NCBI GenBank assembly: GCA_037131775.1 | Contig: JBAXQK010000001.1 | Coordinates: forward strand, 12,708 to 76,707 | Source of the DNA: Candidatus Uhrbacteria bacterium | GTDB lineage: Bacteria > Patescibacteriota > Patescibacteriia > UBA9934 > GWF2-40-263 | Direction: 5' to 3' | DNA length: 64,000 nt | Shown: piece by piece, positions 71 through 50,210 of the stretch | How positions within the stretch are numbered: position 1 is the stretch's first letter | How the letters are laid out: each line of letters begins with the position of its first letter | Notes under the pieces: model-generated | What the model was told of the DNA's origin: nothing | Databases searched by the model: none | Seen by the model: only the letters and a program-made list of their open reading frames with translations | Translations under genes and position numbers: made by a program

Positions 71-2032
71 TCAGTCTTGGTTTGCATACGAATCTGGTTC
101 CACAAGTAAATTATCGAATTCGTACATAATGATAGCACCGTCGCCCACCGCATACCAGGCGCCACTTATCCCCCGCGCCCGTTCGTCAAGCCATTCGAAC
201 CCGGGCCAGTAGCGGTAGGTGAGAAAGTAGCCACGGTTGGTTTCCGTGAGCGCCGCGGCGGCACGCATCGTCTCGATCGTTGGCTCGCCGTACGTCATCT
301 GTCCGTAGAGGTCGTAGAGCGCGGCTCCGGTTGGGAGGGGGTACCAGAGGGTCTGGCGTTCGCCGGCGGGAAGGTAGTGCGCGAAGCCGAACTCCCGTAG
401 CGCGGCAGCGGACGTCATTTGATTGGCGAGGACGAAGTAGGGCTGGCCGTCCGCGAGCTCGTCGATGGCATGGACGGCCTCGACATCCGCGGCGCTCACG
501 CTCGGTCCGGAAAGGTCGGACTTAGGATTCGTCTGCGGATAGCTAAAGTAGAGGGAGAGCGACGCCGCGATCGCGACGGGGACGAGGAGGGGCGGGGCGA
601 GCAAAGGACGGCGCGCCGCGACGAATTGCCAGACCGCTTCGCTTCCAACGCCGAGCGTTGGCAGTAGGACAAGCGGAAGGATCTCGACGAGGCGAAGGGC
701 GAACTCGGACTGCTCGTAGGAGATGATATCCTGGAAGACGAACGCGGTGCTCACGAGGAAGATTGAGCCTAGGAGACCGAGGAAAAGTATGGAGACCGTC
801 GACAGATCGGTTTTTCCCGCCGTCGGGCGTGATCCCGCCCGACGGCGAGACGTGCAAACAGCCACGACAATCGTCGCGACGAGAAGGATCGCCGGGAGCC
901 ACTGGTGATAAAGATAAAGGCCGGTCCAGAACGTCGGGACGATTCCTGGAGGGTGGGGGAACGGATCGGCGAAGAGGCCCCAGAAGAAATCGAGGCGTGA
1001 GAACGGGTTGTTGATGACGGTAGAAGCATGAACACGATAGTTGTTCAATGCGAGAAGCGCAGGAACGGATACGGCAAGCAAGACGGTCGCCACGATGTTC
1101 CTCACCGAGTGACGAACATGTCCGTTCGCGATCGAGTACGCCGCGAAGATCGCGGTCGGGACGCCGAGAAGCGGGTGGCAGAGAACGGACCATGCGGCGA
1201 CGATCGCGAGTCCGGCGGCAATGCGGCGGTCGCTGCAGAGCGGGGAGAGGCAGAGGACGAGGATAAATAGGACGACCGTCAGGTTGTACGGAACCGAGAA
1301 GGTGAGAGCTGCGAACGGGGTCACGAGGAACAGATAGATCCATCGTCGCGCCGCCTCGTCGGTCATCCCCCAGCCGTCGCGGAGTCCGGCGATTCCGAGG
1401 ATTGGGATCAGCATCGAGGCGAGCAGCGGGACGAGCCATTTGTCGAGCGCGTCGACGGAAATTCCGAGCAGGCGATGGACGATCGCGACGATTGCGTATT
1501 GTCCCGCGTACAGCGGCGTCTTCGGATCGATGTGACCGGCGGCGGCGAGCGCGGTTTCGGCGGCTCGGTGCACGAACGGATCGAAGCCGAAGCCGATCTT
1601 GAAGATGGTCGTCGCGATCGAGAACGCGGTGAAGAAGTGAAAGAAGGTCGCGACGCGCGAACGGGACAGCATTCCCGAGAAGGTCGTCGCGGCGAAGATG
1701 ACGAAGACCGCCGGGCTGACGACGAGCCATGGGCTCGAGAGCGCGAGGTCTGTACGGGCGTGGAGGCAGGCGATGAGGATGAGCAGGTCTCCCGCGATGG
1801 TCGCGAGAACAAAGAATAGGTCTGGTTTCCCAGGGACTTTAGTCCCGTTCGTCGTTCGACGCGACAAGCCCCACGTCACGACCGCCGCCGCGACAATCCC
1901 AGCGATCTCGACGAACGCGTTCAAATCGAACAGCAAATACCCGATCGTCCATACGATCCCGGCGGTTGAAAGCGCGCAGAGAAACCAAAGTGCCGATCGC
2001 TCGATTGGGTCTTGGAAGACTGGTTTCGGCAT
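71..2032 (-). CDS. Large polytopic membrane protein with a C-terminal soluble domain; putative GT-C-fold glycosyltransferase-like or DUF2079-like protein.
   Basis: 653-aa ORF with more than 10 predicted hydrophobic helices in the N-terminal 450 aa, followed by an approximately 200-aa hydrophilic tail. No recognisable catalytic motif. A shadow ORF lies on the opposite strand. Confidence 0.4.
   Translation of the reverse strand: MPKPVFQDPIERSALWFLCALSTAGIVWTIGYLLFDLNAFVEIAGIVAAAVVTWGLSRRTTNGTKVPGKPDLFFVLATIAGDLLILIACLHARTDLALSSPWLVVSPAVFVIFAATTFSGMLSRSRVATFFHFFTAFSIATTIFKIGFGFDPFVHRAAETALAAAGHIDPKTPLYAGQYAIVAIVHRLLGISVDALDKWLVPLLASMLIPILGIAGLRDGWGMTDEAARRWIYLFLVTPFAALTFSVPYNLTVVLFILVLCLSPLCSDRRIAAGLAIVAAWSVLCHPLLGVPTAIFAAYSIANGHVRHSVRNIVATVLLAVSVPALLALNNYRVHASTVINNPFSRLDFFWGLFADPFPHPPGIVPTFWTGLYLYHQWLPAILLVATIVVAVCTSRRRAGSRPTAGKTDLSTVSILFLGLLGSIFLVSTAFVFQDIISYEQSEFALRLVEILPLVLLPTLGVGSEAVWQFVAARRPLLAPPLLVPVAIAASLSLYFSYPQTNPKSDLSGPSVSAADVEAVHAIDELADGQPYFVLANQMTSAAALREFGFAHYLPAGERQTLWYPLPTGAALYDLYGQMTYGEPTIETMRAAAALTETNRGYFLTYRYWPGFEWLDERARGISGAWYAVGDGAIIMYEFDNLLVEPDSYANQD
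1826..1852. repeat. Copy of the short palindromic repeat CCCAGGGACTTTAGTCCCGTTCG (core GGGACTTTAGTCCC).
   Basis: The same 21-23-mer recurs at 36828-36850 and 49956-49976. Here it lies inside the 5' part of ORF 71..2032. Confidence 0.5.
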
Positions 2033-4437: not shown

Positions 4438-6621
4438 ATGAAACAACTCCTCAAAACGCATTTCGGCTACGATGCCTTCCGTCCGCTGCAGGAGGACATC
4501 ATGAACACGGTCCTCGGTAAAAAGGATGCGCTTGTCCTCATGCCAACGGGGGGAGGGAAGTCGTTGTGTTTCCAGCTCCCGGCGCTCATGTTTCCCGGAA
4601 TCACGCTCGTGATCTCCCCGCTCATCGCGCTCATGAAGGACCAGGTCGATTCGCTGACCGCCAACGGCATCTCCGCCGCGTTCATCAACAGCACGCTGAC
4701 GGACGACGAGATGCAGTCCGTCGAGTTCCGCGCGCTGTCCGGCGAGCTGAAGATCCTGTACGTGGCCCCGGAGCGTCTTCCGTCGCCCGCGTTTCGGCGC
4801 CTGCTCGAGCAGCTTACCGTGAGTCTCATCGCCATCGACGAGGCGCACTGTATCTCGGAATGGGGCCACGACTTCCGGCCGGACTACCGCAACCTAAAGG
4901 ATCTCCGGTCTGCATTTCCGTCCGTCCCGGTCATGGCGCTCACGGCGACCGCGACCCCGAGGGTCCGCGATGACATCGTGAGGCAGCTCTCGATGCAGGA
5001 GGCATCCGTGTTCCTCTCGAGTTTCAACCGCCCGAACCTCACGTATTCCGTTGTCCCGAAGTCCAACTCGTTCAGCCAGCTCGTCGACCGCCTTCGCCGT
5101 CTGAACGACCAGCCGGCGATCGTCTACTGCTTTTCGCGCAAGGACACCGAGTCACTCGCCGCCGATCTGACGCACGCCGGGCTCCGCGCCCTGCCGTATC
5201 ACGCGGGCCTTGAGCGCGATCTGCGGCGCGAGACCCAGGAGCGGTTCATCCGCGACGAAGTGCCGATCATCGTGGCGACGATCGCGTTCGGGATGGGAAT
5301 CGACAAGCCCGACGTCCGGCTCGTGGCGCACATGGACCTGCCAAAGACCATCGAGGGGTACTACCAGGAAACGGGCCGCGCCGGACGCGACGGGCTGCCG
5401 AGCGAATGCGTCCTGTTCTACACCTACGGCGACAAGCGCAAGCAGGAATTCTTCATCGCCCAGATCGCGGACGAGGACGAGCGCGAGCTTGCCCAGACCA
5501 AGCTGAACCAGGTGGTCTCGTATTGCGAGTCGGATACCTGTCGGCGACAGATGCTTCTGCGTTACTTCGGCGAACCCTGGGACGATTCCAAGTGCGACGC
5601 GTGCGACAACTGCATCCAGGCTCCCGTCGAATCCCGCGATGCCACCGAGATCTCCCAGAAGATCCTGTCCGCCGTATTGCGCACCGGCGAGGCGTTCGGC
5701 GCGGCGTACGTGATCGACGTACTCCGAGGGTCGCGGAAGGAGCGGATCGTCGAGAATCATCACGACGACCTCCCGGTCCACGGGATCGGACGCGACGTTT
5801 CGGTCGACTCGCTTCGGGAGTGTTTCCGACTGTTGCAAAAGAAAGGCTATTTGGAAAAGACCGAGGGCGACTATCCGACGCTGCGGGTTTCCCGCATGGG
5901 AAAGGCCGCGCTTTCCGCGAGGGAGTCGATCGAGCTCCCCGTCACGATTGCTACGACGACCGCCGCGCCGTCGAGATCCTCCCGTTCGTCGTCGGCTGCC
6001 GCCGGATCCGTTCCATACGACGCGGGTCTGTTCGAGATACTCCGCCGTGAGCGGAAGTCCATTGCCGACGAGCGTCACGTTCCGCCGTTCGTCATCTTCG
6101 GCGACAAGACGCTGCACGAGATGGCATATTATTTCCCACGCTCGACGGACAGCCTGTCGTCCGTGTTCGGCGTGGGCGCAAAGAAGCTAGAAGAGTTCGG
6201 AGACGCATTCCTCGCGTTGATTCGCGAGTATGCCGATGCGAATGATCGTGCGGAACGGAAGCATCCAAAGACCGGGGAGGAACGGACGACCGGATCGTCC
6301 TCGGACGGATCCGCGACGGTCGAGCGACGAGGAGGATCAACCGTTCTCAAGACGAAAGAACTCATCGAGAACAAGCTGACCCTGGCCCAGATCGCCGAAT
6401 CCCGCGGGCTCAGCGAGGGAACGGTCGTGACGCACATCGCCGCGCTGCTCCAGGAGAACGACTCGCTCGACATCGAGCACCTTCGCCCGTCCGACGAACG
6501 CATGTGCGCCATCTCGGACGCGTTCGAAAAAACCGGCGGAGCCTTTCTCTCGCCGGTCAAAACGCTGCTTGGGGACGACTATTCCTACGATGAGATCAAG
6601 CTCGCGCGGCTGTTCTTGTAG
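4438..6621 (+). CDS. recQ: ATP-dependent DNA helicase RecQ.
   Basis: FGYDAFRPLQ, LMPTGGGKSLCFQLPA Walker A, DEAHCISEWGHDFRPDY, RecQ-Ct zinc-binding Cys cluster (CRRQ..CDACDNC), HRDC-like region, and an extra C-terminal HTH-like tail. Confidence 0.85.
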   Translation: MKQLLKTHFGYDAFRPLQEDIMNTVLGKKDALVLMPTGGGKSLCFQLPALMFPGITLVISPLIALMKDQVDSLTANGISAAFINSTLTDDEMQSVEFRALSGELKILYVAPERLPSPAFRRLLEQLTVSLIAIDEAHCISEWGHDFRPDYRNLKDLRSAFPSVPVMALTATATPRVRDDIVRQLSMQEASVFLSSFNRPNLTYSVVPKSNSFSQLVDRLRRLNDQPAIVYCFSRKDTESLAADLTHAGLRALPYHAGLERDLRRETQERFIRDEVPIIVATIAFGMGIDKPDVRLVAHMDLPKTIEGYYQETGRAGRDGLPSECVLFYTYGDKRKQEFFIAQIADEDERELAQTKLNQVVSYCESDTCRRQMLLRYFGEPWDDSKCDACDNCIQAPVESRDATEISQKILSAVLRTGEAFGAAYVIDVLRGSRKERIVENHHDDLPVHGIGRDVSVDSLRECFRLLQKKGYLEKTEGDYPTLRVSRMGKAALSARESIELPVTIATTTAAPSRSSRSSSAAAGSVPYDAGLFEILRRERKSIADERHVPPFVIFGDKTLHEMAYYFPRSTDSLSSVFGVGAKKLEEFGDAFLALIREYADANDRAERKHPKTGEERTTGSSSDGSATVERRGGSTVLKTKELIENKLTLAQIAESRGLSEGTVVTHIAALLQENDSLDIEHLRPSDERMCAISDAFEKTGGAFLSPVKTLLGDDYSYDEIKLARLFL

Positions 6622-7411
6622 AGGCCGCGACGCTGGCGACAAGGAAGAACAGGATACTCCAGAGAACGATCGTTCCTCCGCTCGCGAGATCGAGATAGAA
6701 TGACGACACGAGGCCGAGGATCACGGACAGGACGGAGATCCCGATGGCGATCTCCCATGTCTTGCGGAACCCCGTGCGAAACTGCATCGCGCCGAGCACC
6801 GGGATGACCATGAGCGCGCCGATGAGGAGCACGCCGACCACGTTCATCGAGATCGCGATCGTGGCGGCGCCGAGGACGGCCAGGACGCGATTGAGCTTTT
6901 TGACCGAGATGCCGCTCGCCTCGGCCATGTCCTCGTCAAGGGAGACGACGAACAGGGCGCGCCACAGCATCATGGTAATGGCGAACGCAGCGGTTCCGAG
7001 GAGGACGATCGACAGCAGGTCGGCGCGCGTGACGGTGATGATATTTCCAAACAGGTAGTTGACCACGCTCACGTTCTTGCCGTGCGCGAGGCCGAGCAGG
7101 ACGACCGCGACGGCGAGGCCGCCGAACAGGAACAGGGAGACGATGGTGTCCGCGGGGAGCACCTTCTTTTCGCGCATCCGCTCGATGCCGAGGACGGACG
7201 CGACGGAGAACACGAGCGCCGTCGGAATCGCGGCGGTTCCGGCAACGAGGCTCGCGGCGACGCCGGCGAGGGAAATATGGGCCAGCGTGTCGGCCATCGA
7301 CGAGTAGCGGCGGACCACGAAGAACAGGCCGATCGTGGGCGCGACGATGGCGACGACGATGCCGACCATGAGGGCGCGGCGCATGAAGTCGAGAGAGAGA
7401 AGTTCGAGCAT
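6596..7411 (-). CDS. znuB: ABC-type zinc/manganese transporter permease (ZnuB/TroC family).
   Basis: Start set at MLELLSLDFM. Eight hydrophobic helices. Ends convergently overlapping recQ. Immediately downstream of the znuC-like ATPase, which stops at 7416. Confidence 0.75.
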   Translation of the reverse strand: MLELLSLDFMRRALMVGIVVAIVAPTIGLFFVVRRYSSMADTLAHISLAGVAASLVAGTAAIPTALVFSVASVLGIERMREKKVLPADTIVSLFLFGGLAVAVVLLGLAHGKNVSVVNYLFGNIITVTRADLLSIVLLGTAAFAITMMLWRALFVVSLDEDMAEASGISVKKLNRVLAVLGAATIAISMNVVGVLLIGALMVIPVLGAMQFRTGFRKTWEIAIGISVLSVILGLVSSFYLDLASGGTIVLWSILFFLVASVAASTRTAARA

Positions 7412-9626: not shown

Positions 9627-9718
9627 TTTATCCACCCTTGCAGACTCCCCAATCGCCTGATATACTCCTCACGCCGTACCAAATTCCGGGGTAGCTCAGC
9701 GGCAGAGCAGTGGACTGT

Positions 9719-10284
9719 GGCACGCGTTTTAGGCAATACTCAATTAGTATGGCCGACAAGCGAACCTACGCCCAGCGAGCCGAAACGATCAAGCGCGCAG
9801 TCAGCAAGCGTAGAAAGCGGGTCCGGATGCAGGCCATCGAGTTTCTCGGCGGCAAGTGTCAGATCTGCGGATACGACCGGTGCGTCGACGCTCTCGACAT
9901 CCATCACAAGGATCCAAAGAAAAAGTCTTTCGGCATCTCTGAGGACGGTGTCACTCGTTCCTGGGAACGGGTAAAGGCAGAGATCGAGCATTGCATACTG
10001 ATTTGCGCGAACTGCCATCGCGAGGTTCATGCGGGCATTACGCAGCTTCCAACGGAAACGTTGGAATGAACACAGGGTGAATTGCTGGAAGCCGTCGTCA
10101 GTAATGACATGGTAATCAGCAGCCAAGCCTTTGATCCCAGGACATAAGTCCGCAGGATCATCGGAAGGTTCAGAGACTATCCTTTCGAGGAGTACTTCTC
10201 CGACGTAAGTCGGAGCGGGAAGCGCCCTGCATCCGCAAGGATGATGATATAGTCCACGCTTTTGGGAAACCAAGAGAGTACGTG
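9719..10284 (+). mobile_element. Group I self-splicing intron of about 566 nt in tRNA-Asn, carrying an HNH homing endonuclease ORF.
   Basis: Conserved group I P7 elements GTTCAGAGACTA (10168-10179) and TAGTCC (10250-10255). Inserted after U35 of the anticodon. Contains an HNH ORF at 9749-10069. Boundaries could shift by 2 nt because of local sequence repetition (CTGTGG / GTGTAA). Confidence 0.6.
9749..10069 (+). CDS. HNH homing endonuclease encoded inside the tRNA intron.
   Basis: CQICGYDRC...DIHHKDPKKK...CANCHREVH is a classic HNH/His-Cys box with two CxxC pairs. Wholly contained in the intron. Confidence 0.7.
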   Translation: MADKRTYAQRAETIKRAVSKRRKRVRMQAIEFLGGKCQICGYDRCVDALDIHHKDPKKKSFGISEDGVTRSWERVKAEIEHCILICANCHREVHAGITQLPTETLE

Positions 10285-10413
10285 TAATCCATTTGTCGCG
10301 GGTTCGATCCCCGCCCCCGGAGCCAACACAATCTCCCTTTATTTGAGGGGGATTTTGTTATACAGTGGGTGGGAACTGGAACTACGGAAATAACATGAGA
10401 ATTACTAAACGAT

Positions 10414-32942: not shown

Positions 32943-33056
32943 GAGGCGGCCGGGAGCGATCTTGCTTTTGGCTGCTTTTATTTATCCTCAATATTGCGAG
33001 CTCGCTCAGTGCGAAGCAATCCCAACGAGGGGATGCATCGGCCTCCGGGCCTCGCA

Positions 33057-35306
33057 ATGACATATGATATGACCGAGAAAAAAACCTATAAGATCGCCGG
33101 AATGCACTGCGCATCCTGCGCGGGGATCATTCAGAAGACGTTTCAGAAGATGAACGGAGTCGCGTCCGCCGAGGTGAACTATGCGACCGAGACGGCGAAG
33201 GTCGCGTTCGACGCGGGGAAGACGAGCGCGGAGACGCTCTCCGCGGCGATCCTGCCGCTTGGGTATTCGCTCGTGCTCGACAAGGAGACGAGCGGGACGA
33301 AAGCCCCTGAGAACAAGGAGGCGAACCCACTGCCAGTTTTGCTTCCGATCGTCGCGGTCAGCCTGTACGTCATGGGCTGGGACGCGCTGATCGCGTTCGG
33401 GTATCTGCCGAAGATGACAGTGTTCTGGAGCGAGTTTTTCCATCATCTCCTCCCGCTGATTGCGACCTACGCGCTGTTTGTCGTCGGAAAGCCGTTCCTG
33501 CAGGGCGTGTACCGATTCCTTCGCTATGGAAAGGCCAACATGGATACGCTCATTGGCATCGGTACGCTGGCGGCATATCTTTACAGCGCCACGATCGGCG
33601 CGTTCGAGGAATCGCTTGCGCCGTATCTGAACGTGGAACAGTCGTACTTCGACGTGACGATCGTCGTCATCTCGTTCGTGACCATCGGCAAGTGGCTGGA
33701 GGCGCGGGCGAAGCGTAAGACGGGCGATGCCATTCAGGGACTGATGAAGCTGCAGGCCAAGATGGCGACGGTCGTGCGCGACGGCAAGGAAGTCGAGGTT
33801 CCGATCGGGGACGTGGCCGTGGGCGACATCGTCGTCATCAAGCCGGCCGGGAGGATTCCGGTCGACGGGACGGTCGTGGAGGGAGCGTCGTATCTCGACG
33901 AGTCGCTCGTGACCGGGGAGCCGATGCCGGTGAAGAAGGTCGCGGGCGATTCCGTCGTGTCGGGGACGATGAACGGCGACGGGGCGTTCACGTTCCGCGC
34001 GACGAAGGTTGGCGCGGACACGATGCTCGCGCGGATCGTCGCGATGGTCGAGGAAGCGCAGGGAAGCCGCGCGCCGATCCAGGCGATGGCCGACAGGATT
34101 TCAGAAGTATTCGTGCCGACCGTGCTCGTGATCGCCTTCGGATCGCTTGCGGCCTGGCTGACCGTCGGGACGTATTACTTGGGATTCGCGCAGGCCTTGT
34201 CGTTCGGCCTTTCGTCGTTCGTGGGCGTTCTCGTGATCGCGTGCCCGTGCGCGCTCGGGCTTGCGACGCCGACGGCGATTATCGTCGGGGTAGGCAAGGG
34301 CGCCAAGGAGGGGATTCTGGTGAAGGACGCCGCGGCGCTCGAGATGCTCGGGAAGGCAAACGTCGTCGCGATGGACAAGACCGGGACGCTGACGAAGGGA
34401 AAGCCGGAAGTCGTGTCCGTGAAGGCCGTGGCGCCGATGACGGATGACCGGGCGGTGGCGATTCTTGCCTCGCTTGAGGGTCGCTCGGAGCATCCGATCG
34501 CGCATGCCATCCTTTCTTACGTGACGGGCCGGAAGATCTCCGCGCCTTCCGTCGACGGTTTCGAGGCGATCAAGGGGATGGGGGTGAAGGGGAGGGTCGA
34601 TGGGACGACCTATTGGGCCGGGAACGTTCGGCTGATCCGGTCGCTTGCCATCGCGTTCGATGTTTCGACGCTTGAACACGAAACATCGTCAGGGAACACT
34701 CCAGTGATTCTCGCGACGGCCAAGGGGGTCGTCGCGGTCGTCATGGTCGCGGATCCGGTAAAGCCGGAGGCCGTCCAGGCCGTTCGCCATCTCCACGATC
34801 TCGGCCTGAAGGTCGTGATGCTCACGGGCGACGCGAAAGGGACGGCGGAGTTCATCGGCGCGCAGGTTGGCGTCGACGAGGTGGTGGCGGAGGCACTGCC
34901 GGAAGGAAAGCTTGAAAAGATCAGGTCGCTCCAGGCGGAAGGAAGAATCGTCGCGATGGCGGGCGACGGGGTCAACGACGCACCGGCGCTCGCGCAGGCG
35001 AACGTCGGGATCGCGATGGCGACCGGAACCGACGTGGCGATCGATTCCGCGGGAATCACGCTGCTGCACGGCGACATCGGAAAGATCGCGAAGTCCGTCG
35101 CGTTGTCGAAGCTGACGATGCGCGGGATTCGACAAAACCTGTTCTGGGCGTTCTGCTACAACGTGGTTGGCATTCCGCTCGCGGCCGGCCTGCTCTATCC
35201 GGTCTTCGGCTGGACGCTCAGCCCGGTGTTTGCCGGCGCGGCCATGGCGTTCTCCAGCGTGTCCGTGGTGATGAACTCGCTCCGTCTGAAGACGGTGAAG
35301 CTCTAG
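33057..35306 (+). CDS. copA: Copper-translocating P1B-type ATPase.
   Basis: N-terminal HMA domain GMHCASCAGII, CPC motif IACPCALGLATP, DKTGTLT phosphorylation site, and GDGVNDAPAL hinge. Confidence 0.85.
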   Translation: MTYDMTEKKTYKIAGMHCASCAGIIQKTFQKMNGVASAEVNYATETAKVAFDAGKTSAETLSAAILPLGYSLVLDKETSGTKAPENKEANPLPVLLPIVAVSLYVMGWDALIAFGYLPKMTVFWSEFFHHLLPLIATYALFVVGKPFLQGVYRFLRYGKANMDTLIGIGTLAAYLYSATIGAFEESLAPYLNVEQSYFDVTIVVISFVTIGKWLEARAKRKTGDAIQGLMKLQAKMATVVRDGKEVEVPIGDVAVGDIVVIKPAGRIPVDGTVVEGASYLDESLVTGEPMPVKKVAGDSVVSGTMNGDGAFTFRATKVGADTMLARIVAMVEEAQGSRAPIQAMADRISEVFVPTVLVIAFGSLAAWLTVGTYYLGFAQALSFGLSSFVGVLVIACPCALGLATPTAIIVGVGKGAKEGILVKDAAALEMLGKANVVAMDKTGTLTKGKPEVVSVKAVAPMTDDRAVAILASLEGRSEHPIAHAILSYVTGRKISAPSVDGFEAIKGMGVKGRVDGTTYWAGNVRLIRSLAIAFDVSTLEHETSSGNTPVILATAKGVVAVVMVADPVKPEAVQAVRHLHDLGLKVVMLTGDAKGTAEFIGAQVGVDEVVAEALPEGKLEKIRSLQAEGRIVAMAGDGVNDAPALAQANVGIAMATGTDVAIDSAGITLLHGDIGKIAKSVALSKLTMRGIRQNLFWAFCYNVVGIPLAAGLLYPVFGWTLSPVFAGAAMAFSSVSVVMNSLRLKTVKL

Positions 35307-35307
35307 T

Positions 35308-36330
35308 ATGGAATCGCACAAATTCTACGTCTCGGGGATGCACTGCCAGGCGTGCGTGCTCATGACCGAAAGCGAGCTGAAGGACTGTCCGTGCGTGACG
35401 AGCGCGACCACAAGTTTGAAGGAGGAGACGGTGGTCGTCGTTGGCGAGTTCGAGGGAAGGGACGCGACTGCCATTGCGGAGGAACTGACGAAAGTTCTTA
35501 CAAAACATGGGTATGCGCTTAGCGTCGAGCGCCCGGTGCCCGCTGCTAAGCGATGGGGTGAGTTCGCCTACGCCATCCCGCTCGCGTTTGCCCTCATTCT
35601 CGCGTTTGCCGGACTCCAACAGTTCGGACTCGTGAACCTAATCCCGGGAGGAACCGTGAGCTACGCGACTCCGCTCTTCGTCGGAATCGTCGCCTCGCTT
35701 TCGAGTTGCCTCGCGGTGGTGGGCGGGCTCGTGCTCACTCTGTCCGCGACGTTCGCGAAATCGGGAAGCACCGTGCGTCCGATCGCGACGTTTCATATCG
35801 CGAGGATCGTCTCGTTCTTCGTCTTGGGAGGAGCGATCGGCGCACTCGGTTCCGCGTTCCGGCTGGGGACGACCGCGACGCTCGTGGTCCAAATTGTCCT
35901 CGCGGCGGTCATGCTCGTCCTCGGCGTCAATCTCCTCGATCTGCTTGCAAGCGCAAAGAGGTTCCAGCCGTCGATGCCGAAGTTCGTCTCCGCCCGCGTC
36001 GTCCGTGCGTCCAAACTGACGAACGGTTTCGTCCCGGCCCTCGTTGGCGCGCTGACCTTCTTCCTTCCGTGTGGATTCACGCAGTCGATGCAGCTATACG
36101 CGCTTTCGACCGGATCGTTCCTGGCGGGCGCGCTCACCATGCTCGCGTTCTCGATCGGAACCTTTCCGGTCCTGGCGCTTGTAAGTTTCGGCTCGTTCAA
36201 GCTGGAAAAGAGCGCACGGAAGGGAATCTTCCTGCGAGCCGCGGGAATCCTCGTCATCGCGTTCGCCATCTTTAACCTGACGAACGCGCTTGTGGCAGCC
36301 GGATACATTCAGCCGATATTCAATATCTAG
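35308..36330 (+). CDS. HMA (heavy-metal-associated) domain fused to a polytopic DsbD_2/TauE-like membrane domain; putative metal chaperone-permease.
   Basis: N-terminal GMHCQACV...CPC. A membrane domain with conserved Cys (SSCLAVVGG, FFLPCGFTQ). Translationally coupled to copA (stop and start 1 nt apart). Confidence 0.5.
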   Translation: MESHKFYVSGMHCQACVLMTESELKDCPCVTSATTSLKEETVVVVGEFEGRDATAIAEELTKVLTKHGYALSVERPVPAAKRWGEFAYAIPLAFALILAFAGLQQFGLVNLIPGGTVSYATPLFVGIVASLSSCLAVVGGLVLTLSATFAKSGSTVRPIATFHIARIVSFFVLGGAIGALGSAFRLGTTATLVVQIVLAAVMLVLGVNLLDLLASAKRFQPSMPKFVSARVVRASKLTNGFVPALVGALTFFLPCGFTQSMQLYALSTGSFLAGALTMLAFSIGTFPVLALVSFGSFKLEKSARKGIFLRAAGILVIAFAIFNLTNALVAAGYIQPIFNI

Positions 36331-36343
36331 AATCGAATACAAT

Positions 36344-36751
36344 ATGTCGTCAAACCCATTTCTCTACATCGTCATCGGGATCGTATTGATCGGAGGGTTC
36401 GTTCTGCTCAGCGGAGGAGGGAAGTCAACGACGGTTGCCTCGACGTCCGGCGCGTCGGCCGGTTCGAACGTCGAGATCGTCGACGGAACGCAAATCGTGA
36501 CGATCGAGGCGAAGGGTGGGTATACGCCGGGATCGAGCGTCGCAAAGGCCGGAATCCCTACGATCCTTCGGTTCGTGACGAGCGGCGCCTACGATTGCTC
36601 ATCGAGCGTCGTCATCCCAAGCCGCAAGATCGCGCAGGACCTTCCCGCGACCGGAACGACTGACATCGACGTCGGCACGCTCGCGCCGGGAACGCTGAGC
36701 GGCACGTGCTCGATGGGGATGTACCGGTTCAGCGTGGAGGCGAAGTCGTGA
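36344..36751 (+). CDS. Membrane-anchored cupredoxin-like copper-binding protein.
   Basis: N-terminal TM anchor and a beta-rich domain with Cys/Met candidate ligands (DCSSS...GTCSMGMYRF). Lies within the cop cluster. Confidence 0.4.
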   Translation: MSSNPFLYIVIGIVLIGGFVLLSGGGKSTTVASTSGASAGSNVEIVDGTQIVTIEAKGGYTPGSSVAKAGIPTILRFVTSGAYDCSSSVVIPSRKIAQDLPATGTTDIDVGTLAPGTLSGTCSMGMYRFSVEAKS

Positions 36752-36754
36752 TCC

Positions 36755-36852
36755 CGACGGGACGAAAGTCCCTGGGAAGCGCACGGGACTAAAGTCCCTA
36801 TGAAATCAAAGTCCTGGGAATTGATATTCCCAGGGACTTTAGTCCCGCTCGA
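36755..36852. repeat. Cluster of nested palindromes of the GGGAC(G/T)AAAGTCCC family (copies at 36759-36772, 36785-36798 and 36833-36846), plus AAAGTCCTGGGAAT-tgat-ATTCCCAGGGACTTT.
   Basis: Fills the convergent intergenic region between the cupredoxin-like gene and msrA. The same family is seen at 1826-1852 and 49900-49975. Confidence 0.55.
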
Positions 36853-36857
36853 TCGTT

Positions 36858-37328
36858 TTATACGTGACACGTCGACATTCCGCGCTTCGCAAGATACTGC
36901 TGGTGGTAATCCTCAGCCGGATAGAACGTGACGGCAGGGACGATCTCGGTGACAATCGGCTTGTTCCATTTCCCACTAGCTTCCAGGGCCGCGCGCGACC
37001 GTTCCGCCGCGGCTTTTTGGTCCTCGTCGTGATAAAAGATCACGCTTCGATACTGCGTCCCGACGTCCGGGCCCTGGCGGTTCAGCGTCGTTGGATTGTG
37101 GTTGCTCCAAAAGACGTCGAGCAACGAATCGTAGCCGACGGCCGCAGGATCGTACTCGACCTGGACGACCTCCGCGTGGCCGGACTCGTTCGAGCAAACG
37201 TCCTCGTACGTCGGGCTCAGCGTGTCGCCGCCGGTATAGCCGACCATGGTCTTTGTCACTCCCGGGAGCTTGCGGAACGTCTCCTCCACGCCCCAGAAGC
37301 ATCCCGCGCCGAACGTTGCCGTGCTCAT
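36858..37328 (-). CDS. msrA: Peptide methionine sulfoxide reductase MsrA.
   Basis: [12 protein letters not shown] active-site motif. Start set at MSTATF. The track ORF extends 9 further codons to 37355. Confidence 0.85.
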
Positions 37329-37337
37329 ATGGTATAA
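37329..37337 (+). promoter_or_regulatory. Extended -10 element TGGTATAAT, 7 nt upstream of ATG 37345; possible leaderless transcript.
   Basis: A TGnTATAAT consensus match seen directly in the sequence, with no room for an SD sequence. Confidence 0.3.
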
Positions 37338-37344
37338 TAGGTTC

Positions 37345-37794
37345 ATGAAGAGCATATCAAAATCATCGAAGGTTGAAAATCGGTCGCTCCCGGAATTCCG
37401 GCACGCCTTTGCCGGACTTGCCGCTGTCCTTTCCGCGGATGTGATCAGCCTTGGCTTTCATGTCTACGAGCGGTTCCCGGACATCGACGTCCCGATGCAC
37501 GTGGCCGGGGGATTCTTCGTCGGTCTCTTCGCGATCTGCGTCCGCAACGAGCTGCTTCGCCGCAGACTCATTGCGCGGGCTCCCTGGTGGTACGACCTGA
37601 TCTTCGCGGTCGGCTTCGTCGCGGTCGTCGCGATCTTTTGGGAGCTGTACGAGTTTGTCCTCGACGCGACGTACGTGGCCAGCCATCATCTGATGAAGAG
37701 CCAGATCTCCGTCGCGGACACGGTCGACGACCTGATGAACGGAATAATCGGCGCCGCATTCGCGTTCTGGGTGCACGGAAGCGCAAAGAAATAG
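37345..37794 (+). CDS. Hypothetical integral membrane protein (4 TM helices).
   Basis: Hydrophobic helices. No motif. Confidence 0.4.
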
Positions 37795-48129: not shown

Positions 48130-49629
48130 ATGACCATTACCGTCCGAAAAGGAAACCTCATCGACGAAAAGGCAGATCTGCTTGTACTCAATTTGTTTGC
48201 CGGAGAAAAGCTCGGCGGCGCGGTGGAGGCGGTCAATGCGAAGCTCGACGGACTTGTCGACACGATCGCGAAGGAAGACCAGTTCAAGGCCGCGCTCGGG
48301 ACGACGCTTTCGATTCGGACCGGCGGCGCGATCCCGGCGAAGCGCTTGTTGATCGTCGGACTCGGCGACAAGAAGAAGTTCTCGGAAGAGACCGTGCGCG
48401 TCGCGGCGGCCGCATCGCTGAACGTCGCGAAGTCGATCGGCGCGAAGACGGTCGTATCCGTCCTGCACGGCGCGGGAGGCGGGGAATACGCGGCACGGCT
48501 TTGCGGCAAGGCGATCGCAGAGGGCGTGTTGCTCGCGGACTATGAGTATGGCCGGTACAAGAAGGAATCCCCCAAGAAGTCGCCGACGAGCTTCTCGATC
48601 GTAACGACGGACGGGAAGAAGGCACGATTTGCGGCGGAGGGCGCGAAGCTTGGCGAGACGTATGCGCAGGCGACGATTTTGGCCCGCGATCTCGTAAACA
48701 CGCCGCCGTCGCACATGGTTCCCGCCGATCTTGTCGAGGCCGCGAAGGCCATCGCGAAGGCGAGTCCGGGAATGAAGATCAGGGTGTTCAACCGCGCGCA
48801 GCTCGCAAAGATGGGCGCGGGCGGATTGCTCGGCATCGCGAAGGGAAGCGAGCACGAGCCATTCCTGGTCCACATGACCTATCGTCCGGCGAACGCGACG
48901 ACCAAGACGAAGTCCATCGCCCTCGTTGGCAAAGCCGTCACGTTTGACTCGGGCGGCCTTTCGCTGAAGCCCGCCAACTCGATGGAGACGATGAAGTGCG
49001 ACATGGCCGGGGCGGCCGCGGTGATCGGGGCGTTCTCCGTGATCGCGGAGCTGGCGCCGAACGCGGAGGTGCACGGAATCTTCGGCGCGGTCGAGAACAT
49101 GCCGTCGGGAACGGCCGTCCGACCGGGAGACGTGCTCACGATCATGAACGGCAAGACGATGGAAATCAAGAATACCGACGCCGAGGGCCGCGTGACGCTC
49201 GCCGACACGCTGACGTACGCCGCTCGCCTCAAGCCGAACGCGATCATCGACCTTGCGACCCTTACCGGCGCCTGCGTCGTCGCGCTCGGCGAGGAGATTA
49301 CCGGTCTCATGTCAAACGACGACGCGCTCGCGCTGAAGGTCGAGACCGCCGCAAAGTCTGCCGGCGAGCTGATGTGGCGCATGCCGCTGCCGGAGGAATA
49401 CAAGGAGCTGATCAAGACCGACATCGCGGACTACAAGAACGATGCTCCGCGCTGGGGAGGAAGCCTGACCGCGGGCCTGCTGCTCCAGGAGTTCGTCAAC
49501 GGGATCCCGTGGGTCCACCTCGACATCGCCGGACCGGCGTTCGCCGAGCATCCCGTCAACCCGTACACGAGGAAGGGCGCCACGGGCCACGCGGTCCGCA
49601 CGCTGCTCGAATATCTTCGCGCGCTATGA
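48130..49629 (+). CDS. pepA: Leucyl aminopeptidase (M17 family).
   Basis: VGKAVTFDSGG, NTDAEGRVTLAD signature, and a conserved C-terminal catalytic domain. Confidence 0.8.
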   Translation: MTITVRKGNLIDEKADLLVLNLFAGEKLGGAVEAVNAKLDGLVDTIAKEDQFKAALGTTLSIRTGGAIPAKRLLIVGLGDKKKFSEETVRVAAAASLNVAKSIGAKTVVSVLHGAGGGEYAARLCGKAIAEGVLLADYEYGRYKKESPKKSPTSFSIVTTDGKKARFAAEGAKLGETYAQATILARDLVNTPPSHMVPADLVEAAKAIAKASPGMKIRVFNRAQLAKMGAGGLLGIAKGSEHEPFLVHMTYRPANATTKTKSIALVGKAVTFDSGGLSLKPANSMETMKCDMAGAAAVIGAFSVIAELAPNAEVHGIFGAVENMPSGTAVRPGDVLTIMNGKTMEIKNTDAEGRVTLADTLTYAARLKPNAIIDLATLTGACVVALGEEITGLMSNDDALALKVETAAKSAGELMWRMPLPEEYKELIKTDIADYKNDAPRWGGSLTAGLLLQEFVNGIPWVHLDIAGPAFAEHPVNPYTRKGATGHAVRTLLEYLRAL

Positions 49630-49907
49630 TCCCGGTCGAGACGAAGTATGGCAGGCTCGTCCTCGTCTGCACGAACGGGCGCGACGACGGACGCGAATGC
49701 TGCATGGCGAAGGGATCCGTCGAGTTGCACACCAAGCTTAAGGAGGCGATCAAAGCGGTCTCGGCGGACGTACGCGTGGTCAAGACGGGCTGTCTCAACG
49801 CTTGCTCGACGGGCGCGACGGTCGTGGTTATGCCGGAGAACGTCTGGTTCGGACAGGTGACGGAGGAGGATATTCCGGAGATTGTCGCGCACGCCACACG
49901 GGACTAA
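49626..49907 (+). CDS. Thioredoxin-like [2Fe-2S] ferredoxin.
   Basis: LVCTNGRDDGRECC...KTGCLNACSTG is the four-Cys pattern of thioredoxin-fold 2Fe-2S ferredoxins. ATGA overlap with the pepA stop. Confidence 0.55.
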   Translation: MIPVETKYGRLVLVCTNGRDDGRECCMAKGSVELHTKLKEAIKAVSADVRVVKTGCLNACSTGATVVVMPENVWFGQVTEEDIPEIVAHATRD

Positions 49908-49975
49908 AGTCCCTTGGAAATCGAAGCCGGACTAAAGTCCGTTTGAACAAGTTCACAGGGACTTTAGTCCCGTTC
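49900..49975. repeat. GGGACTAAAGTCCC-family palindromic repeat element (copies at 49900-49913, 49929-49940 and 49958-49971), overlapping the ferredoxin stop codon and ending 5 nt before the glutaredoxin start.
   Basis: Same family as 36755-36852 and 1826-1852. Shares the 3' module CAGGGACTTTAGTCCCGTTCG. Confidence 0.55.
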
Positions 49976-49979
49976 GCGT

Positions 49980-50210
49980 ATGACCGTCATCGTCTACTCA
50001 ACCCCGACCTGCCCGTATTGCAAGCTCGTCAAGAAATTCCTGACGAAGCACGACGTCGCGTTCACGGACATCGACGTGTCCGCCGACGCGAAAGCCGCGC
50101 ACGACATGATCAAGAAGACCGGTCAGCTCGGCGTTCCGGTCGTCGACATCGACGGGAAGACGATCGTCGGGTTCGACGAGGAGAAACTAAAAAAGGCGCT
50201 GGGCATCTAG
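49980..50210 (+). CDS. Glutaredoxin (NrdH/Grx-like).
   Basis: CPYC active site at residues 11-14 and a thioredoxin-fold GVPVV motif. Confidence 0.7.
   Translation: MTVIVYSTPTCPYCKLVKKFLTKHDVAFTDIDVSADAKAAHDMIKKTGQLGVPVVDIDGKTIVGFDEEKLKKALGI

Follow-up and report, generated by a model that had tools for sequence, protein, structure and literature searches.

The DNA analysed here is a 64-kb stretch of a contig (JBAXQK010000001.1) from a Candidatus Uhrbacteria metagenome-assembled genome (MAG), referred to in its full length of 64,000 nt as the window, and the subject of this report is a family of short hairpin-forming DNA repeats which occurs in it. Three loci with such repeats are where an earlier inspection of the sequence (the original prediction) had placed them. 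Locus 1 is a single unit within the gene of a 653-aa membrane protein, whose NCBI entry is hypothetical protein WCO25_00065 from a Candidatus Uhrbacteria MAG. Locus 2 occupies the 106-nt gap between a cupredoxin-like gene (36290-36751) and the convergent gene msrA (36858-37355, minus strand). Locus 3 starts inside a ferredoxin-like gene and ends just upstream of a glutaredoxin gene; as had been noted, it overlaps the ferredoxin stop codon, the TAA lying in the loop of the first hairpin. In both clusters (36751-36852 and 49894-49976) units on the minus strand come first and a unit on the plus strand comes last.

The seven units counted originally were all recovered, and a search of the window with a profile made from the copies of other genomes added an eighth, a decayed copy in copA, as well as a truncated one in locus 2 (Table 1). 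Beyond the eight units nothing rose above noise in this search. Eight units in 64 kb compare with about 0.1 expected by chance and correspond to a density of roughly one per 8 kb. The motif GGGACNNNNGTCCC alone occurs six times against 0.08 expected, a number reached in none of 100 shuffled sequences, and the 3′ module reported to be common to the three loci is indeed an exact 21-nt match, CAGGGACTTTAGTCCCGYTCG, at 1831, 36831 and 49956, where no occurrence is expected.

Table 1. Repeat units in the window and computed folds of the two clusters
Feature	Position	Strand	Context and remarks
Single unit TTTCCCAGGGACTTTAGTCCCGTTCGT	1826..1852	+	Inside membrane-protein gene (71-2032, minus strand), frame reads NGTKVPGKP; profile 27.9 bits
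Decayed unit GTTCTCAGGGGCTTTCGTCCCGCTCG	33289..33314	-	Inside copA (32994-35306, plus strand); 2 mismatches; profile E 0.021
Loop-variant unit GGGACGAAAGTCCC	36751..36778	-	Starts at TGA stop (36749-36751) of cupredoxin-like gene
Unit CGCACGGGACTAAAGTCCCTATGAAAT	36780..36806	-	Found by profile and inverted-repeat search
Truncated unit (..CAAAGTCCTGGGAA)	36807..36821	-	Forms small hairpin CCTGGGAAT/ATTCCCAGG with flank of next unit
Unit ATTCCCAGGGACTTTAGTCCCGCTCG	36825..36852	+	Ends 6 nt from msrA stop; long hairpin with the minus-strand units
Unit with stop codon TAA (49905-49907) in loop	49894..49921	-	Stop of ferredoxin-like gene (49626-49907, plus strand)
Degenerate unit CCGGACTAAAGTCCGTTTGAAC	49925..49948	-	Profile match covers core 49929-49940
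Unit AGTTCACAGGGACTTTAGTCCCGTTCG	49950..49976	+	Ends 3 nt before glutaredoxin ATG (49980-50210, plus strand); profile 29.4 bits
Fold of locus 2	36745-36865	+	-54.8 kcal/mol; z -5.5 against shuffles
Fold of locus 2	36745-36865	-	-55.8 kcal/mol; z -6.4 against shuffles
Fold of locus 3	49885-49985	+	-47.8 kcal/mol; z -8.1 against shuffles

Aligned in one orientation, all copies follow the pattern (AA)TTC-NN-A-GGGACT-TT-AGTCCC-G-T-C-N-G, which gives an oriented consensus unit of about 25 nt, TTCNNA-GGGACT-TT-AGTCCC-GTCNG. Each unit consists of a G+C-rich stem of 5-6 bp closed by the 4-nt loop TTTA, with TTC three bases 5′ of the stem. The flanks are asymmetric, being TTCNNA 5′ of the stem and GTCNG 3′ of it. 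Together with the last C of the stem the 3′ GTC reads CGTC, and the conserved stretch is CCCGTC (G 97%, T 87%, C 68%); the first C of this CGTC is a stem base and hence not unpaired. Conservation runs past the pattern used for searching and drops to background within about 27 nt, so that no long element body is present. The cores GGGACT-AA-AGTCCC and GGGACT-TT-AGTCCC are mutual reverse complements, and it is the central dinucleotide that orients each copy. Accordingly, GGGACTAAAGTCCC is not the perfect palindrome it had been taken for, its reverse complement being GGGACTTTAGTCCC, and the latter is not a separate relative; both are the same oriented unit read from opposite strands.

A wider view of the family was obtained from related genomes. 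When only flanks and loop were fixed and the stem was left open, 269 matches were found, 201 of them with perfect 6-bp stems falling into seven types: GGGACT (132), GCCACT (48), GCCGCT (6), GGGGCT (5), GCCCCT (4), GCGACT (4) and GCGATT (1). Stem positions 2-4 vary in a compensatory manner on both arms and the flanks and loop stay constant. Adjacent units mostly have opposite orientations (78 of 92 pairs, against 14 direct ones), with a modal start-to-start offset of 27 nt. Most pairs are heterodimers of GGGACT and GCCACT units with the layout TTCNNA-GGGACTTTAGTCCC-GTC-N7-GAC-GCCACTAAAGTGGC-TNNGAA, in which the two stem types alternate in the manner of bacterial interspersed mosaic elements (BIMEs). 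These dimers measure about 55 nt, and tandem arrays also occur. The window segment holds GGGACT units only, as homodimers. Furthermore, at 13 loci of a single genome, CAYYFM01 (among the loci fetched from it L008 at 4789, L024, L037, L043, L045, L057, L064, L069 and L071), there is a derived GCCACT unit whose loop contains one and the same nested hairpin of 31 nt (CCCACCGACGCTAAAGCTTTGGTGGGTAAAA). Thirteen copies of one such composite would be expected from copying and not from independent point mutation, and are hard to explain otherwise. A resemblance to CRISPR was also considered, the hairpin with its CTNNGAA tail being similar to a type I-F repeat; it was rejected on the 33-43 nt periods of the arrays and their identical "spacers".

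Further copies outside the window, which the original prediction had proposed to look for, are plentiful. A scan of species-representative genomes (596 Gb) with TTCNNAGGGACTTTAGTCCCG, a pattern with 19 fixed bases, returned at least 104 stretches with the exact 21-mer, and 96 of those listed come from ten MAGs of Uhrbacteria/Patescibacteria type. Among the listed stretches there are also 8 single matches in unrelated phyla, a number not far from the 4 or so that chance would give. The GC content of the loci fetched from the ten MAGs ranges from 41 to 65%. Some members of this set (CAYYFM01, CAYRYG01 and CAZDDW01; loci L002-L104) bear the title "uncultured Gammaproteobacteria", yet they are syntenic with the window at 64-78% nucleotide identity and share the repeat family; their taxonomic labels look wrong.

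The search for a transposase gene associated with repetitive extragenic palindromic (REP) sequences, a so-called REP-associated tyrosine transposase (RAYT), was successful in three related contigs. A first pointer came from tblastn with IS200/RAYT queries, a search that would not necessarily have detected transposases elsewhere. It led to locus L025, where a 169-aa open reading frame (ORF) matches the Pfam family Y1_Tnp (PF01797) with 25.9 bits against a gathering threshold of 23; one unit stops 9 nt short of its ATG, and another five are found no further than 150 nt away on either side. At L110 four GGGACT units and one GCCACT unit come before the corresponding gene, which has units on both sides, and at L109 a gene with 67% identity is enclosed by units that share the flanks but have the stems GCCCCT, GGGGCT and GGGTCT. 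Homologues are present in several Uhrbacteria MAGs, one of them named "REP element-mobilizing transposase RayT" by JGI. The HUH motif (here HYH) and the motif GYxxGNxxKH are invariant in 14 sequences of the clade. In NCBIfam the clade matches a single family, NF047646 ("REP-associated tyrosine transposase"), which is covered from position 4 to 146 of its 146 profile positions. Compared with PDB entries, a profile of the clade matches TnpA(REP) of E. coli (4ER8) over its full length (E 0.0065) as well as TnpA of ISDra2; a PDB search with the RAYT as single sequence gave no match. The genes at L109 and L110 also share their neighbours, a seryl-tRNA synthetase gene upstream and, downstream, genes for two large proteins without Pfam matches followed by PrgI, TraC-like and TraG-like genes of a type IV secretion-like set (L109 3151-9687; L110 6001-12690). 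Because of this conserved synteny, the sequences suggest that the RAYT gene is inherited vertically as a single copy. At L110 the called product has 229 aa, some 50 aa more than its relatives, and its ORF continues through the downstream units (6517-6690, ..NGTKVPMK..DGTEVPMK..); this annotated C-terminus is probably a repeat-encoded read-through.

On these grounds we consider it likely, with a probability of nearly 0.8 (0.78), that the window hairpins are members of a mobile repeat family of Candidatus Uhrbacteria of the type formed by REPs or REPINs (REP doublets forming hairpins) and a RAYT. Of the two element classes proposed originally, the REP/BIME-like one is upheld by the further copies, the RAYT genes and the comparison with relatives, and the MITE version, a miniature transposable element with inverted repeats that a DDE transposase would move, is not. 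The units would be short oriented hairpin repeats at the DNA level, present singly or more often as REPIN-like inverted dimers, and a single-copy HUH tyrosine transposase of the RAYT type would maintain the family and has probably spread the units. By analogy to TnpA(REP) of E. coli and to the enzymes of IS200/IS605 elements, this RAYT may recognise the hairpin together with a flanking tag, and may move the units, on single-stranded DNA. The window genome would be expected to encode such an enzyme as well. Copies would persist where they do little harm, i.e. right after stop codons, between tightly packed genes, or in frame in variable loops and linkers.

Several findings weigh against this assignment. 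No RAYT gene was found in the window or in about 6.5 kb past its left edge, so that the window genome is linked to a RAYT by repeat homology only. Two more distant RAYT homologues (L111 and L112) have no units nearby, and the NF047646 scores of 52-63 bits fall under the curated cut-off of 80. The flanks lack the GTAG tag, and the CGTC-tagged REPs, which look closest to the units, have been reported without a dedicated transposase (PMC3733652). The loci of the relatives were selected for containing the motif, which biases densities upwards, for instance in one relative, where 293 kb hold 75 GGGACT cores. The unit in the membrane-protein gene is no clean extra insertion, as the loops of distant homologues are of similar length. 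Finally, the large share of units inside genes, quantified below, runs counter to the extragenic position by which REPs are defined.

Comparison of orthologous sites, likewise proposed at the outset, showed that the unit is kept at some of them and missing at others. In about 40 such comparisons it is either retained with 21-26 identities in 26 positions, the flanks being 60-95% identical, or it is missing by 9-23 nt. An rlmN-like orthologue at L045 has about 48 extra nt including a unit with respect to the window gene. Between relatives with 80-87% identity one site differs by 9 nt, the unit being present in one and absent in the other, and a second differs by 63 nt, which amounts to a whole extra unit; judged from the sequences, the shorter version seems to have arisen when a former homodimer lost the stretch between its AGTCCC arms. 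Three species share 21 identical nt of the unit in the membrane-protein gene, where their flanking codons are about 80% identical, and a fourth orthologue has unrelated sequence at this position.

These comparisons bear on the idea that the units are DNA uptake signals, comparable to the DNA uptake sequences (DUS) of Neisseria or the uptake signal sequences (USS) of Haemophilus and propagated by biased uptake and recombination. Conservation at the DNA level across species, within coding regions and above that of the flanks would suit such a function, and so would single copies in genes next to inverted pairs at gene ends and the absence of the motif from viral sequences (no unit in a scan of viral contigs). 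Uptake signals, however, should come and go by substitution, and occupied and empty sites differ in length by 9-63 nt instead. The family comprises seven stem types that coexist in one genome and pair as heterodimers, it forms tandem arrays and the 13-copy composite derivative, and its units flank a transposase gene. DUS and USS occur at a density of about one per kb, and the density in the window is roughly tenfold lower. This explanation is therefore regarded as extremely unlikely.

In the MITE explanation the 25-nt unit would be the terminal inverted repeat of an element moved by a DDE transposase, dimers would be whole elements and single units solo ends, and many dimers do resemble elements of about 55-100 bp bounded by inverted GAATTC..GGGACT units. 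Against this, a conserved internal body is missing, no target-site duplication can be seen at those filled sites that were compared, the two ends mostly have different stems, and the only transposase found beside the units is of the Y1/RAYT type, which leaves the MITE explanation very improbable.

A considerable part of the units lies inside genes. The label intergenic in the original prediction is correct for the two clusters and does not apply to the unit at 1826-1852; in the window 2 of 8 units are inside genes, and in the relatives about a third are. In relatives with a GC content of at most 51%, 51 of 154 units are located deep in ORFs of at least 200 codons, a count accompanied by Pfam checks and limited in this way because the codon-usage gene caller picked the wrong strand in a relative with 65% GC. 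In-frame copies occur in essential genes of replication, repair and translation, namely those for LigA, UvrA, ValS, DnaG, DnaX and CysS, where translations are intact and Pfam domains are recognised on either side. A separate count over all related genomes, using gene calls scoring at least 30, yielded 40 units deep in genes; they encode the peptides GTLVP (15), GTKVP (13), RDFSPV (8) and TGLKSLG (4). As all four stop-free frames are used, the repeat appears to be a DNA-level element filtered by selection and not a selected peptide. The nested-hairpin derivative, too, is found in frame, encoding PTDAKALVGKKVA inside UvrA, DnaX and CysS. Annotators should note that the repeat encodes conserved short peptides of Uhrbacteria proteins, among them GTKVP, GTLVP, RDFSPV and ATKVA. 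A further recurrent peptide of CAYYFM01, GGSAFGGSGV, hints at another repeat.

The two in-gene copies of the window lie in a loop and in a linker. The unit at 1826-1852 falls between transmembrane segments of the 653-aa protein, whose 60 N-terminal residues ahead of the repeat are conserved in orthologues. The decayed unit in copA encodes SGTKAPE in the linker following the HMA domain (residues 31-91). The CAYRYG01 orthologue of the HMA-DsbD fusion gene of the window (L074 at 6913; window position about 35504 by coordinate offset) also has a unit in the linker behind its HMA domain, and linkers behind such domains may be recurrent tolerated sites.

The two intergenic clusters are predicted to fold very stably as RNA (Table 1). 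They would be transcribed together with their neighbours, and the resulting hairpins would probably protect or define mRNA 3′ ends, and those at the ferredoxin/glutaredoxin junction would probably damp translation. This junction bears a hairpin in all three genomes compared, the kinds of hairpin being different. In one of the other genomes hairpins with other stems occupy the same positions; their coding 5′ arm shows synonymous changes only (CGG GAC TAA to CGC GAT TAA), for which the non-coding 3′ arm compensates. At the same junction in CAYRYG01 (L098 4440-4520) a different and longer inverted repeat of the GGATACTGGATATTAG type is present, which was seen just once in the DNA examined.

Such features raise the question of whether the hairpins might be local, non-mobile terminators or RNA-stability elements that arose by convergent selection. 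Their position next to stop codons, their stability, a small hairpin with a T-rich tail after msrA, and the compensatory changes at a junction that keeps a hairpin in three genomes would all be expected of them. The identity between copies, however, extends to unpaired flanks and loop, which convergence would not fix; a third of the units lie in genes, where terminators would do damage; of some 60 intergenic regions in the window just 2 have units; and the association with a RAYT would be left over. In addition, no T-tract follows the units, and a terminator scan of the window remained at chance level, with 2 terminators found and 1.7 expected. We therefore assign only a very small probability to this interpretation. 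Known RNA families are not found at the window repeats by Rfam at its gathering thresholds, a sigma-70 promoter scan gave no match, and no promoter could be built by hand from the unit.

A functional role of units that nevertheless spread as mobile REP-like repeats is a different matter. In the related loci, ORFs of 100 codons or more most often start 6-11 nt behind a hairpin, too close for a Shine-Dalgarno sequence to fit in between, and in every listed case the ATG is directly preceded by T (TATG), including the RAYT genes (L025 2193-2216); the glutaredoxin start in the window has the same arrangement (49958-49982). The units could have been co-opted as punctuation at gene boundaries, supplying stop codons, 3′ hairpins and part of downstream translation or transcript processing, and their in-frame copies may add conserved linkers of the GTKVP/GTLVP type to essential proteins. 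We judge such a co-option unlikely.

One more explanation arises from the sequence of the core itself. The motif was found in the searchable literature only as the DosR box of Mycobacterium tuberculosis (TTSGGGACTWWAGTCCCSAA), whose 14-bp core GGGACT(TT/AA)AGTCCC is identical (PMC5999986); the consensus probe TTAGGGACTTTAGTCCCCAA contains the 14-mer. The units could thus be operators of a dimeric DosR-like helix-turn-helix regulator controlling a stress regulon. A homodimer site would vary symmetrically in both halves, as the stems do, and the window copies are near genes of redox and metal metabolism, namely msrA, the glutaredoxin and ferredoxin-like genes and copA. Operators would be expected at promoters, though, and the units are located downstream of convergent genes, across a stop codon and well inside housekeeping genes. 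Their flanks and central TT are asymmetric and oriented, the spacing of the flanks differs from that of the DosR box, and tandem arrays, heterodimers, stem variants, the nested-insertion derivative and the units around a transposase gene all speak against operators. No DosR-like protein was detected in the window and about 0.8 Mb of related loci, which is a weak test, and a metagenome scan found no unit in 292 kb around msrA relatives (at most 73% identity) of other organisms. Taken together, operators have next to no probability, and the identity of the core is most likely a coincidence.

Two further observations concern genes of the window. The msrA gene scores low under a codon model trained on the window genes, and its closest metagenome relatives, with at most 73% identity, are on contigs without units; it may have been acquired horizontally. 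Apart from the repeats, a tRNA gene at 9685-10325 (plus strand) is apparently interrupted by a 566-nt group I intron. With introns allowed ARAGORN reports tRNA-Thr(TGT), Rfam assigns Intron_gpI with 80.4 bits at 10018-10276, an HNH-type motif (..ICANCH..) is present in an ORF of the intron, and a clean tRNA 3′ half with CCA follows at about 10290-10325.

Genomes of the candidate phyla radiation have a size of about 1 megabase or less and are usually described as streamlined. If the assignment to a REP/REPIN-RAYT-type family is correct, a lineage with a small genome keeps hairpin repeats that look selfish, along with a RAYT-type transposase to match, which would extend REP-RAYT biology to a new phylum and provide an independent case for the long-term coexistence of REPINs and their hosts. 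No paper tying REP or RAYT to this phylum was found in the searchable literature. In practice, the units could serve as markers to type strains and to recognise mislabelled bins.

Among the known systems, the proteobacterial REP/REPIN-RAYT systems (REP/BIME with TnpA(REP) in E. coli, REPINs in Pseudomonas) are close to the family. The REPIN papers of Bertels and Rainey reportedly describe inverted REP dimers and single-copy, vertically inherited RAYTs. In both, imperfect palindromes of 20-40 nt are scattered in many copies and form inverted dimers, units of two types alternate in orientation as BIMEs do, and a Y1 HUH transposase gene is bracketed by repeats, with conserved synteny in two contigs. 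Differences are found in the flanks, TTC and (C)GTC instead of GTAG, and in the shorter stem of 5-6 bp. About a third of the Uhrbacteria units are in genes whereas the REPs of E. coli are extragenic, an identical unit is kept across genomes with 41-65% GC, the host belongs to the candidate phyla radiation, and the transposase is distantly related and scores under the NCBIfam cut-off.

In the comparative study of Di Nocera et al. (2013, PMC3733652), GTAG- and CGTC-tagged REPs form head-to-head dimers, frequently heterodimers, near gene 3′ ends; REP ends can supply stop codons, and copies occur inside genes for UvrA, ligase, polymerase and tRNA synthetases. The CGTC-tagged group, which includes RPE-4 and RPE-6 of Rickettsia and dRS3 of Neisseria, shares with the Uhrbacteria units the CGTC-like end, the 4-nt loop, head-to-head dimers that are often heterodimers, copies in replication, repair and tRNA synthetase genes, and ends which touch or provide stop codons. 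Its members have stems of 8-9 bp starting with A-T, a loop of 4-5 nt and a CCA tail (PMC3733652). The Uhrbacteria stem, in contrast, has 5-6 G+C-rich base pairs, the opposite end reads TTCNNA, the C of CGTC is paired, and units flank a RAYT-like gene.

A last parallel is the Rickettsia palindromic element RPE-1, which Ogata and colleagues are said to have described in 2000 as a repeat of 100-150 bp lying in frame in protein genes. Here as there, palindromic repeats are inserted in frame in the genes of a host-dependent bacterium with a small genome and are tolerated in surface loops and linkers. The Uhrbacteria repeats differ from RPE-1 in their size, about 25 nt for units and 55 nt for dimers, and in that a candidate transposase has been identified for them.

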